Sequence record: PV344601.1
DNA from: Staphylococcus phage RQ1
Reading direction: 5' to 3' (one strand)
DNA length: 64,000 nucleotides
The notes below the pieces were generated by a model that saw nothing but the letters and a program-made list of their open reading frames with translations, was not told where the DNA came from and made no database searches. Positions 61,355-62,582 of this stretch are shown here, in pieces (position 1 is the stretch's first letter; every line of letters begins with the position of its first letter). The translations under genes and the position numbers were made by a program.

Positions 61355-62248
61355 TTATTTAACCGGTTTTTTAAACCAGTCTTTAGCTTCCGTAATTAAT
61401 TTTGTATATTCGTAACTTGCTTTGTTTCTATTTATGTGACTAAAATCTTCATTAAACGGGTCTTTGTTAATGTAATTACCTTTGAAAAACATATCTTTCA
61501 TATCTTGTGTTACTCCTGCATTGTGATATATTTTATTTTTATTCCACTTCTCAATAGAATCTGTTGCCCAAGTAAATTCCATTTCTTTTTTAGCACGTGG
61601 CATTACATCAAATAGAGGCATATTCCATAGTGTTGCCACCATTTCTTGACACCACTTTTGATAATTTGTATCTTTGTCTTTTATATATTTCCATAGTTTA
61701 ATACTATCTTCATATACCTTTTTAAAATATTCTGATGAAGGTTTGCTCATAATATATTGAGCTCCTATAGAATCATTATTCATTGATTTAATATCTTCTA
61801 TTGACACCCCTACAATTTCACTCATATCTTTTAGTATATTAAAACCATTATCGCATTGCACTATATAGTCATAGTTGAGGTATCCACCACAATCCGAACC
61901 ATACCAAACACCTCTCAAATGACTATCTGTCTCAGGTTGTTCTTTTACAATAACATCACTGTCCATAAAGAAATACGTTTCATTTTCCCTAGAGACATCT
62001 TCTTCTAAGTAACGGTACATTAAATATGGTTTTAGACTTGGTATGTACTCAAAGTCTACTCTATCATCTGAATAAACATGTACATTAACACCTATATTTT
62101 TTATTTCTGATATAACACTTTCTTCATGTCTGGAAAACAAAATTACAATATCTTCTTTTAAGACTTCGGCTTTTAATAAACCATATATCGCTACTTTAAC
62201 TTCCCATTCAAATCTAGGTACAGCTGGTTGAGCCATAATGTATTTCAT
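61355..62248 (-). CDS. putative GT-A-like glycosyltransferase (DXD motif) inserted between the major tail protein and the chaperone genes
   Basis: Start moved to the ATG after aaaggagag (MKYIMAQ..). FFMDSDVIV DXD-like motif preceded by an alternating beta/alpha pattern. Confidence 0.3.
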   Translation of the reverse strand: MKYIMAQPAVPRFEWEVKVAIYGLLKAEVLKEDIVILFSRHEESVISEIKNIGVNVHVYSDDRVDFEYIPSLKPYLMYRYLEEDVSRENETYFFMDSDVIVKEQPETDSHLRGVWYGSDCGGYLNYDYIVQCDNGFNILKDMSEIVGVSIEDIKSMNNDSIGAQYIMSKPSSEYFKKVYEDSIKLWKYIKDKDTNYQKWCQEMVATLWNMPLFDVMPRAKKEMEFTWATDSIEKWNKNKIYHNAGVTQDMKDMFFKGNYINKDPFNEDFSHINRNKASYEYTKLITEAKDWFKKPVK

Positions 62249-62317
62249 ATTCATTCTCTCCTTTAATCTATGTATACTCCCCCAAAAGGAGGAGTTGGAA
62301 GCCACTACTCAAATAAA

Positions 62318-62582
62318 CTATAATTCTACGTTTGGAACCTCTGACTCTGCTTCTGGAACATCTGACGGGTCACTAGGGTCTAGTGTAGTCGTCGTTGTAG
62401 TTGTTGTTCCCTCTGTTGTAGTCGTGGTCGTGGTCGGCTGAGTTGTAGTTGTTGTAGTTGTCGGCTCAGTCGTCGTAGTCGTAGTAGTTGGAGCAACTGT
62501 CGTTGTTGTAGTCGTTGTAGGAGCTACAGTTGTCGTAGTTGTCGTTGTACTACTTGTAGTCGTTGTAGTGGTTGGCTTAGGG
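62318..62582 (-). CDS. Thr-rich C-terminal extension of the major tail protein, reached by +1 frameshift at the CCC.UAA shifty stop (62577..62582)
   Basis: +1 frame reads ..P KPTTTTTTSSTTTTTTTVAPTTTTTTTVAPTTTTTTTEPTTTTTTTQPTTTTTTTEGTTTTTTTTLDPSDPSD..VEL-stop. That frame has no ATG or RBS of its own. Confidence 0.5.
62330..62560 (-). repeat. tandem roughly 30-nt repeats encoding (T7-X-X-P) units
   Basis: actacaac/gacgac periodicity. TTTTTTTVAP, TTTTTTTEP and TTTTTTTQP units. Confidence 0.65.

Follow-up and report, generated by a model that had tools for sequence, protein, structure and literature searches.

A candidate virion-protein O-glycosyltransferase gene beside a poly-threonine tail tube tag in a staphylococcal phage

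The window analyzed here is a 64,000-nucleotide (64-kb) stretch of Staphylococcus phage RQ1 (PV344601.1). Near one end, a gene for a 297-aa protein has the major tail (tube) protein gene on one side and the genes for the tail assembly chaperones on the other (Table 1). A preliminary description of this DNA had placed it there, and the domain matches agree, with Phage_TTP_1 (62577-63023) on the tube side and PF23857 (60974-61324) on the chaperone side. That description also held that no gene normally occupies this position. The Sextaecvirus phages 6ec, SEP9, and S-CoN_Ph10 indeed have no gene between the tube and chaperone genes. The position is not special to RQ1, however: it recurs in many Firmicutes phages, beside whichever structural gene carries a threonine (Thr) tag. 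The chaperone genes lie directly downstream and, as read from the sequence, belong to the same late transcription unit as the 297-aa gene. No minus-strand terminator was found between the tube gene and the chaperones, the first being at 60732-60697.

The longest mechanical open reading frame (ORF) of the gene opens at a GTG at 62305 and would encode 316 aa, and an alternative ATG at 62254 would give 299 aa. We place the start at the ATG at 62248 because the ribosome-binding site (RBS) is spaced 7 nt from it and because all homologs in a 40-member alignment begin with MKY or MKF. The product starts with MKYIMAQP and ends at a TAA (61357-61355, minus strand). On inspection, it has no evident membrane segment or signal peptide.

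Table 1. Positions of the genes and sequence features at the locus, numbered along the window
Feature	Position	Strand	Remarks
Tail assembly chaperone genes	60744..61324	minus	G-like 60974-61324 (PF23857 4e-21), T-like 60744-60932
Candidate virion-protein O-glycosyltransferase gene	61355..62248	minus	297 aa, cytoplasmic, GT-A fold (predicted)
H242-N-A-G-V motif	61511..61525	minus	H242, G245 invariant; candidate third metal ligand or sugar-binding loop
D96-S97-D98, DXD motif	61955..61963	minus	Presumed metal / nucleotide-sugar diphosphate binding
RBS AAAGGAGAG of the 297-aa gene	62256..62264	minus	7 nt before ATG at 62248; read from sequence
+1-frame extension of tail protein, P-KPTTTTTTSSTTTTTTTVAPTTTTTTTVAPTTTTTTTEPTTTTTTTQPTTTTTTTEGTTTTTTTTLDPSDPSDVPEAESEVPNVEL-stop	62318..62581	minus	Presumed main glycosylation substrate
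CCC TAA, +1 programmed frameshift site (predicted)	62577..62582	minus	Overlaps tail protein stop codon
Zero-frame T7 tag, C-terminus of unshifted tail protein	62583..62603	minus	
3' exon, major tail (tube) protein	62577..63024	minus	Residues ~50-197; Phage_TTP_1 6.3e-10, phrog_88
Group I intron in tail protein gene	63025..63330	minus	Boundaries inferred from U...G splice rules
Upstream exon, tail protein gene	63331..63482	minus	Residues ~4-49; exon alignment and sequence reading

The tube gene is split. A tblastn search with the 6ec major tail protein gave 89% identity to the tube protein exon. Next to this exon lies a group I intron (Rfam RF00028, 63076-63340, 85 bits, E = 1.9e-22), which was matched in a scan of 371 nt and missed in a scan of 3.4 kb. 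The upstream exon has no start codon, and a further exon therefore lies outside the window. In the zero frame, the tail protein ends in ...GDGSTTTTTTTP-TAA, that is, seven Thr and a Pro (T7-P). The +1 frame continues for 86 aa, 49 of them Thr, with six more blocks of T6-T8. Runs of this kind, taken as at least five consecutive Thr/Ser of which at least four are Thr, occur in the 64-kb window, in any frame, only in the tube gene region. The poly-Thr extension that had been described upstream of the 297-aa gene is thus a real tract, but its long stretch is in the +1 frame and therefore requires a frameshift, predicted at CCC TAA. Since the extension would be made only through this +1 frameshift, it is probably present on just some of the tube subunits.

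Several features of the junction are shared with relatives. The sequence ACT CCC TAA is identical in five genomes and reads CCC TAG in L006, and the +1 ORF with its Thr blocks is kept in SA2, PT1-4, TPWB06, PG-2021_4, and L006. CCC makes up 4.7% of Pro codons and CCT 44.8%. The DNA repeat under the extension is 71-76% regular, yet the Thr blocks are kept. In two relatives, an in-frame T16 replaces the +1 extension. We also considered the extension as an independent ORF starting from a TTG at 62629. This was rejected: there is no RBS-like purine run upstream, the first 17 codons would be shared with the tube gene, and the CCC TAA junction is preserved in each of the five genomes.

The FFMDSDVIV motif of the 297-aa protein is present as the preliminary description had it, at residues 93-101 (61972-61946). 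The D96-S97-D98 triplet, with codons for D96 at 61963-61961 and D98 at 61957-61955, directly follows a predicted strand (91-95). A DXD triplet by itself is a trivial sequence feature; its weight comes from invariance across the family. Neither D96 nor D98 varies among the 40 sequences of alignment A1, and these two residues, H242, K256, and others are invariant in 18 members with 25-97% identity (alignment A2). Toward the C-terminus, H242, G245, and K256 (H-N-A-G-V...F-K-G) are invariant in the family; GT8 enzymes have a C-terminal His metal ligand and an HxxGxxKPW-type motif, to which these residues may or may not correspond. H242 may act as a third metal ligand or belong to a sugar-binding loop.

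The predicted structure of the 297-aa protein has the GT-A fold that the preliminary description had proposed to look for, a single Rossmann-like alpha/beta/alpha domain. Its three-dimensional architecture is of the GT8 type, at an aligned identity of 9-14%. The DXD follows a core beta-strand, as in GT-A enzymes, and D96, D98, and H242 are candidate residues of the active-site pocket. By sequence, the protein belongs to phrog_4417, a family of unknown function (E = 9.7e-116, residues 1-289 on profile positions 1-292 of 293). Pfam and NCBIfam scans of the protein gave no match. Filing the family under GT8 was dropped, as the comparisons with PF01501, the PDB, and LgtC were all negative. PF01501 (Glyco_transf_8) was not matched at E<=1 by the 297-aa protein, nor by LP65 orf49 or 521B, two divergent members that have no Pfam glycosyltransferase match of any kind. 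No GT8 chain was found in the PDB by phmmer with the single protein or hmmsearch with the family profile, which returned only chance matches to spackle and SKA1. Alignment of the family profile with LgtC (sequence as in 1g9r) by hhalign was not meaningful and left the motifs unaligned. A profile search of a 5.8-billion-protein database returned, among the best 120 listed, in-family proteins without domains. At the sequence level, then, no curated glycosyltransferase family is detectably similar to this one. The family forms an unannotated clade of its own, which comprises at least 884 clusters at 50% identity. Fusions to Glycos_transf_2 (GT2), Glyco_transf_7C (GT7C), or a methyltransferase domain occur in some members. 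The family is found in 76 cultured phage records, among them phages of Staphylococcus, Enterococcus (VPE25, phiFL), Lactobacillus, and Lactococcus, and in Listeria prophages. A role as a defense or anti-defense moron was also rejected, given that PADLOC gave no defense match for the 297-aa protein and that its gene stays in close linkage with structural genes that carry the tag.

The preliminary description had linked the enzyme to the Thr-rich tail, and this link was borne out in forward, reverse, and within-genus comparisons. In the forward direction, a Thr run of at least five is encoded within 450 nt upstream of the family member at all 82 loci, which include many near-identical prophages and amount to about a dozen independent contexts. 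Control windows contained such a run in 47 of 1114 cases (4%), and in the positives that were checked, the run is the C-terminus of another structural protein of that locus. Chance was rejected as the source of the runs, given this 4% in control windows and their absence elsewhere in the 64-kb window. The tagged neighbors are Phage_TTP_1, Phage_tail_2, Phage_capsid, and Phage_cap_E proteins, small myovirus proteins, and proteins of 1100-1550 aa. They span at least four unrelated capsid and tail-tube families, and in related loci the tag is on the tube and/or the capsid. In the reverse direction, we searched IMG/VR for C-terminal T5-x-P-T7 tags, blind to the enzyme. The enzyme was present on the same strand in 23 of 25 cases, at distances from the tag of +9, +10, +20, or -49 nt, or about 2 kb; the two tags without it have flanking sequence missing.

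Within Sextaecvirus, tag and gene vary together. All seven genomes checked that have the gene have a poly-Thr tube tail, and the three checked that lack it (6ec, SEP9, and S-CoN_Ph10) lack the tail too. For the remaining 6ec-like records listed, the DNA match ends exactly at the start of the Thr tract. Farther afield, LP65 orf49 and 521B (25-33% identity) follow structural proteins with the Thr-rich C-terminal repeats TETQTQTQ and TTVxP. VPE25 has its family member flanked by the head-tail genes on one side and, on the other, by a capsid gene whose poly-Thr extension is recoded; the tube protein of this phage likewise has a poly-Thr C-terminus.

The computations thus give a predicted GT-A fold, a DXD and a His that are invariant among the aligned members, a place in the tail operon, an association of tag and enzyme in both directions that is matched by their co-variation in one genus, fused domains, and a frameshift site. 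On this basis, we regard the 297-aa protein as probably a soluble, metal-dependent GT-A glycosyltransferase of the late tail operon that O-glycosylates virion Thr tags in the cytoplasm. A sugar would be moved from a nucleotide-sugar donor to Thr hydroxyls at the C-terminus of the tube protein. The presumed acceptor tag in peptide form is TTTTTTKPTTTTTTT at the C-terminus. Every subunit would offer the single T7 tag, and a subset frameshifted at CCC-TAA would offer the seven-block tail. The modified, disordered tails would project from the assembled tube and form a mucin-like sugar brush on the long tail. The enzyme would read the tag and not the folded protein, so that one enzyme family would stand beside unrelated capsid, tube, and decoration proteins with similar Thr tags. 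Of the elements of mycobacteriophage-type virion glycosylation, the phage has a glycosyltransferase, predicted solely from its fold and conserved motif, and Ser/Thr-rich C-terminal extensions on capsid and/or tube, here the T7 tag and the 86-aa extension. Enzymatic activity, the donor sugar, the timing of modification, and the glycosylation of the tube protein itself are what we infer from these features. By analogy with GT8, the mechanism may be retaining and the linkage alpha. The sugars may shield from antibodies or proteases, improve solubility, or give weak surface binding.

Other acceptors would be conceivable for such an enzyme. It could be a glycosyltransferase for a host envelope polymer (wall teichoic acid, lipoteichoic acid, or a lipid carrier), acting in superinfection exclusion or receptor masking like prophage TarP or Gtr, with the poly-Thr stretches as unrelated hydrophilic linkers. 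This is quite improbable: the gene lies inside the late structural operon and outside lysogeny or moron regions, its position tracks the tagged structural gene (tube, capsid, or decoration-like), gains and losses of tag and gene coincide within a single genus, the blind tag search leads back to the enzyme, and a membrane segment or signal peptide is not evident. Modification of phage DNA against restriction, with the structural linkage incidental, also has a basis, since the Enterococcus phages VPE25 and VFW have both a family member and glycosylated cytosines (PMC4999554), and some viruses are known to encode glycosyltransferases for DNA hypermodification. The VPE25 modification is, however, ascribed to a T4 beta-glucosyltransferase homolog elsewhere in the genome (PMC4999554), and its family member adjoins the tagged capsid gene in a phage whose tube is tagged too. 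Many Listeria, Enterococcus, and lactobacilli prophages carry the enzyme, always beside tagged structural genes, and no annotated or Pfam-marked hydroxymethylase-type gene is adjacent to it in the GT-carrying loci examined. We consider a DNA-modifying role very improbable.

A different doubt concerns what the fold does. A GT-A-like fold could transfer sugar-1-phosphate (as in Stealth/GNPT) or a nucleotide, or the protein could be a non-catalytic assembly factor that binds the Thr tail; we think either unlikely. About as unlikely is that the +1 poly-Thr ORF is untranslated, an annotation or assembly artifact or a decaying remnant, so that the enzyme meets the T7 tag or nothing. GenBank records do list the extension as a separate small hypothetical ORF. 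Against this, ACT CCC TAA and the open +1 Thr frame are kept across five genomes that are about 70-92% identical (amino-acid and DNA identities of the tube protein and tube region) and in a metagenomic relative, and Thr is kept over an imperfect DNA repeat. The rarity of CCC and abundance of CCU match the experimentally established case of SPP1, and the in-frame T16 of two relatives also argues for a translated tail.

Beyond this phage, we lean toward reading the large unannotated family as the basis of a "glyco-tag" system general to phages of Firmicutes and of some other hosts. Short Thr tags, typically T5-7-x-P-T7, would have been grafted independently onto capsid, tail-tube, decoration, and fiber-like proteins. 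The number of tags per particle would be tuned by recoding at the stop, with a +1 shift at CCC-TAA in the tube gene of this phage and what looks like a -1 shift at A-AAR-stop in capsid genes at other loci. The enzyme-tag pairing points to a widespread, undescribed way of sugar-coating virions in phages of Gram-positive bacteria. If this is true, virion glycosylation would be common in phages of Staphylococcus, Enterococcus, Listeria, and lactic acid bacteria, beyond mycobacteriophages, and many phages that infect clinically or industrially important Gram-positive bacteria would carry a glycan coat, which matters for the pharmacokinetics of phage therapy, for immunogenicity, and for the biology of dairy phages. 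The family, whose members now bear just the label "hypothetical protein," would gain a function, and the odd poly-Thr ends and small overlapping ORFs left unexplained by annotators would be accounted for. It would also provide a minimal, portable pair of one enzyme and one short tag for cytoplasmic O-glycosylation in bacteria. A full-text literature search, covering few subscription journals, found neither poly-Thr tags nor virion glycosylation described for Firmicutes phages, and no published data on virion glycans for a phage that carries the family. To our knowledge and in the literature searched, virion glycosylation by phage enzymes has been shown experimentally only in mycobacteriophages.

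In mycobacteriophages, phage-encoded glycosyltransferases are reported to glycosylate capsid proteins (Freeman et al. 2023, Cell Host Microbe 31:1216). The idea common to those systems and the one proposed here is that phage-encoded enzymes O-glycosylate virion proteins and give the particle a glycan coat. In mycobacteriophages such as Che8, Corndog, and Myrna, the sites are reportedly C-terminal extensions of the major capsid and tail tube proteins. Glycosylation of these virions lowers antibody recognition. The mycobacteriophage hosts are Actinobacteria, and the enzyme family, tag, and host phylum all differ from those of the staphylococcal phage. The mycobacteriophage systems reportedly use several enzymes encoded away from the structural genes, whereas the staphylococcal phage has a single enzyme gene directly beside that of its presumed substrate. 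The staphylococcal tag is a short stereotyped T5-7-x-P-T7 block, lengthened by the predicted +1 frameshift in Sextaecvirus, and differs from the mycobacteriophage tag. No mycobacteriophage protein is among the best 50 of 169 structural neighbors in BFVD (E<=1e-3).

In predicted architecture, the 297-aa protein resembles GT8-like retaining GT-A enzymes (LgtC, glycogenin, AgtA, GlyE, and the UGGT catalytic domain), with undetectable sequence similarity. GlyE is an enzyme of the pneumococcal serine-rich-repeat-protein pathway. The A64R protein of chlorovirus PBCV-1, a eukaryotic giant virus, is likewise a virus-encoded GT-A enzyme, one whose glycosylation substrate is the major capsid protein; structurally, GT8 enzymes match the 297-aa protein more closely. 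A64R builds atypical N-linked glycans on a folded capsid protein.

The closest parallel to the recoding is phage SPP1, where gp17.1 and gp17.1* arise by a +1 frameshift at CCC-UAA over the tube stop, CCC being rare and CCU common, and where gp17.1* carries an 87-aa extension on a fraction of tube subunits (PMC6316719). The CCC-UAA site is identical in the staphylococcal phage, and the extensions are 87 and 86 aa, the latter predicted from the genes. They differ in nature: in SPP1, a folded FN3 domain is added and no modifying enzyme goes with it, whereas the staphylococcal one is low-complexity poly-Thr paired with a candidate glycosyltransferase.

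The tail region of the window shares ~80% DNA identity with Staphylococcus phages VB-SauS-SA2 (SA2) and PT1-4, both assigned to Sextaecvirus, a genus of 6ec-like siphoviruses whose genomes measure ~90 kb. Its genes lie on the minus strand throughout. The preliminary description had placed a 297-aa gene with a DXD-type motif, FFMDSDVIV, between the major tail (tube) protein gene and the chaperone genes. The ORF, its length and its place were confirmed from the sequence, and the motif occupies residues 93-101. The best start is the ATG at 62248, with AAAGGAGAG 7 nt away, and the resulting N-terminus agrees with all homologues. 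The Sextaecvirus relatives 6ec, SEP9 and S-CoN_Ph10 have the chaperone directly after the tube gene, so the 297-aa gene is an insertion relative to these three. Of the two chaperone ORFs (60744-61324), the first encodes a 116-aa PF23857 protein and the second, in a different frame, 62 aa. They are arranged like the conserved G/GT tail-chaperone frameshift pair, and the 6ec counterpart is annotated as a joined CDS.

Features of the tail region of the window, in order of transcription
Feature	Position	Strand	Remarks
Homing-endonuclease ORF	63524-64000, cut by window end	-	phrog_559/phrog_9084; first in transcription order
Tube protein gene		-	second
Tube-gene exon, residues ~4-49	63470-63330	-	no start codon
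Group I intron, between tube residues 49 and 50	63025-63330; Rfam core 63076-63340	-	RF00028, 85 bits, E 1.9e-22
297-aa enzyme gene	61355-62248	-	third
Tail assembly chaperone pair	60974-61324 and 60744-60932	-	fourth
Tape measure protein, 2289 aa	53771-60640	-	fifth

The 297-aa protein matches nothing in Pfam, NCBIfam or PADLOC; its sole match is phrog_4417, of unknown function. A single-sequence search returned 207 clusters at 90% identity, and among the 120 listed none is named or has a Pfam domain. An exhaustive profile search gave 884 representatives at 50% identity; for 520 the E-value was below 1e-30. Family members are encoded in 76 cultured phage records (Staphylococcus, Enterococcus, Lactobacillus, Lactococcus, Clostridium and others). 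Among the 60 that were listed, a few of them lacking annotation, the gene nowhere carries a glycosyltransferase annotation, being labelled hypothetical or unknown, with an orf number, or as 'prophage pi2 protein 34' or similar.

The GT-A fold that the preliminary description anticipated is supported by an AlphaFold2 model, with Foldseek in agreement. The model, with 40 homologues as input, is very confident (pLDDT 95.2, pTM 0.92). Among the best 50 of 169 predicted viral structures, the nearest are two uncharacterised relatives, one of them Lactobacillus phage LP65 orf49; most of those ranked next are annotated as glycosyltransferases, in several cases of family GT8. D96 and D98, just past the strand 91-95, are invariant in members ranging from 97% to 25% identity, as are Y68, S118, Y123, G162-A163-Q164, Q197, W199, M203, F225, H242, G245, F254, K256 and Y281. 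Model fold, structural neighbours and invariant residues thus predict a GT-A fold enzyme of GT8-like architecture. Comparisons with known families were all negative (PDB by sequence and by family profile, hhalign against LgtC, Pfam with divergent members), and GT8 membership by sequence was therefore rejected. Some members carry second domains: Glycos_transf_2, Glyco_transf_7C, an N-terminal methyltransferase or radical SAM/SPASM. These fused versions are 480-780 aa long (profile-search members P0170, P0179, P0187, P0212, P0196 and P0203); in several other long members (550-770 aa) no second domain could be recognised. Fusion to extra glycosyltransferase domains fits a part in glycan building.

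The link between the enzyme and C-terminal Thr tags, drawn from gene neighbourhoods, is the strongest part of the case. Listeria and Liquorilactobacillus prophages encode homologues of 46-47% identity in the same place after the tube gene, and their tube proteins, though of different Pfam families (Phage_tail_2 and Phage_TTP_1), end in ...TTTTTTTTTKPTTTTTTTQN and ...TTTTTVPTTTTTTTH, respectively. In these two prophages and 80 IMG/VR loci, the 450 nt preceding the enzyme gene encode a run of at least 5 Thr, most often 7 (82/82; many loci are near-duplicates, with about a dozen independent contexts). Control windows from the same 82 loci contained a Thr run in 47 of 1114 cases. The commonest exceptions examined were C-termini of other structural proteins of the same phages, either a capsid protein ~2 kb upstream or, where the enzyme follows the capsid gene, a tube protein ~2.9 kb downstream. 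The tagged neighbours are unrelated to one another. They range from HK97-type capsid proteins (PF05065) and Phage_cap_E (PF03864) to tube proteins of the Phage_TTP_1 and Phage_tail_2 families; small proteins encoded by large Lactobacillus myoviruses also occur, as do proteins of 1100-1550 aa whose Thr linkers are internal.

The reverse search gave the same association. A blind IMG/VR scan for DNA encoding T5-x-P-T7 found 80 loci; 25 matches lie within 7 residues of the stop of a real ORF. The enzyme is on the same strand at 23 of these 25 terminal tags (at +9, +10, +20 or -49 nt, or ~2 kb); at the other two the flanking sequence is too short. Internal Thr linkers of large proteins are mostly without the enzyme. 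In the IMG/VR contigs L120 (4387-5335), L134 (12842-13766) and L157, family members of greater divergence (E 1e-73 to 1e-78) come immediately after very large proteins (1122 and 1551 aa) with several internal Thr linkers and no C-terminal tag.

Within Sextaecvirus, a poly-Thr tube tail accompanies the gene in all 7 checked genomes that encode it. Gene and tail are both absent from 6ec, SEP9 and S-CoN_Ph10, whose tube proteins end in ...GDGSENTDSTPSGRLVDDSEKHDETPVADSEETTDTP, and in the remaining 6ec-like records that were listed, DNA similarity to the window breaks off precisely at the beginning of the Thr tract. Herelleviridae members (25-33% identity) follow proteins with differing Thr-rich C-terminal repeats: TETQTQTQ in LP65, where the annotation of one such protein describes it as structural and detected by 2-D gel and MS, and TTVxP in 521B. 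Enzyme and tag appear to have diverged together.

The preliminary description had also noted a poly-Thr extension of the tube protein. The Thr tract is present, but most of it lies outside the zero frame, in which the protein ends ...NIAGDGSTTTTTTTP before a TAA that must be recoded. The remaining tract lies in the +1 frame (KPTTTTTTSSTTTTTTTVAPTTTTTTTVAPTTTTTTTEPTTTTTTTQPTTTTTTTEGTTTTTTTTLDPSDPSDVPEAESEVPNVEL, 86 aa, 49 Thr). SA2, PT1-4, TPWB06 and PG-2021_4 share the identical junction ACT CCC TAA, CCC TAG takes its place in a metagenomic relative (L006), and all five keep an open +1 frame with T6-T9 blocks. Among Pro codons of the RQ1 genome CCC is rare (4.7%) and CCT common (44.8%). The same arrangement is established in the Bacillus phage SPP1, where ribosomes pause at the CCC of CCCUAA and shift to CCU, giving gp17.1*, the tube protein plus 87 residues, in ~1 in 4 subunits (PMC6316719). 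The DNA repeat of the tract is only 71-76% regular while the encoded Thr blocks are almost perfect, which argues for selection on the protein. PMBT8 and PT1-1 have an in-frame T16 in place of the +1 extension. From junction, open frames, codon usage, likeness to SPP1, kept Thr blocks and T16 relatives, we read the tube gene as giving two products, a short form bearing a single T7 tag and, through frameshifting, a long form bearing seven Thr blocks.

Capsid genes offer a further candidate. In Enterococcus phage VPE25 (L214, 4700-4990) the capsid gene ends ...GCA AAG TAA and is followed by an open -1-frame poly-Thr ORF, VTPQPTTTTTTTVKP...ATPGE*; in the Liquorilactobacillus prophage (L005, 3630-3870) it ends ...TCA AAA TAG before IATTTTVSPTTTTTTTVAP...EKS*, also in the -1 frame. 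Both ORFs are unannotated in their records. Possibly, -1 recoding at A-AAR-stop adds Thr tags to some capsid subunits of these phages.

In Sextaecvirus the tube gene is a hot spot for introns. The group I intron in the window is ~306 nt and ORF-less, with a likely splice of ...GCC GT / intron ...G / A AAA GTG; Rfam missed it in a 3.4-kb scan but detected it in a 371-nt scan. The preceding exon lacks a start codon because of an in-frame TGA at 63485-63483. This, together with the homing-endonuclease ORF running off the window, suggests that another intron, carrying the endonuclease, follows about codon 3, and that the core of this intron and the first exon lie past the window end. PT1-1 (L088) has two strong and one weak group I intron matches (210-474, 534-803, 1847-1928). 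PT1-4 has one at another site, after residue 29 (L002, 6984-7285), and a GIY-YIG-like endonuclease gene that separates the Thr extension from the glycosyltransferase gene. The PMBT8 tube gene (L086) is likewise split; those of SA2, TPWB06 and PG-2021_4 are uninterrupted. PQ358086.1, which bears the name 'Arcanobacterium phage TPWB06', has the typical features of a Sextaecvirus-like genome. The enzyme it encodes shares 62% identity with that of the window, and its tube protein and extension are near-identical to those of Mammaliicoccus phage PG-2021_4. Its host label therefore looks doubtful.

Could the enzyme instead modify the host envelope or DNA? Both readings are unlikely, since the enzyme is tied to Thr tags and located in the structural operon. 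DNA glucosylation does occur in VPE25, which carries a family member, but its authors ascribe it to a T4 beta-glucosyltransferase homologue (PMC4999554), and the family member is encoded within the head-tail module, behind the capsid gene with the -1-frame poly-Thr ORF past its stop. The VPE25 tube protein ends in ...TTTDTTTTTTTTTTAGK. It is less likely that the same fold performs other group-transfer chemistry. That the +1-frame extension is simply not translated is argued against by the conserved recoding site. Glycosylation of Thr tags on virion proteins is a well-supported predicted activity.

In the proposed pathway, the enzyme would be produced late along with the tube protein; no terminator lies between their genes. 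It would O-glycosylate Thr tags in the cytoplasm, using a nucleotide sugar donor and a DXD-bound metal; the fold points to a retaining, alpha-linking reaction. The tags, being short, terminal and presumably disordered, would be recognised irrespective of the carrier, which would account for their presence on unrelated proteins. In the assembled tail, T7 tags and the long tails of frameshifted subunits would point outwards as a mucin-like brush, where other siphovirus tubes have Ig-like or FN3 domains. By analogy with mycobacteriophages, the brush may shield against antibodies or proteases, confer colloidal stability on an unusually long tail, or mediate weak adhesion.

The preliminary description knew of no equivalent in staphylococcal-type siphoviruses, and the full-text literature searched, mostly outside subscription journals, yielded neither poly-Thr tags nor virion glycosylation for Firmicutes phages. 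The concept is known from mycobacteriophages, which Freeman et al. 2023 reportedly showed to encode enzymes that glycosylate C-terminal extensions of their capsid and tube proteins. In contrast to that system, the family described here is unannotated, with no sequence relation detected to curated families, and its tag is a stereotyped poly-Thr. A single enzyme is encoded next to its predicted substrate, the system is broad across Firmicutes phages, and tags are appended through putative recoding.
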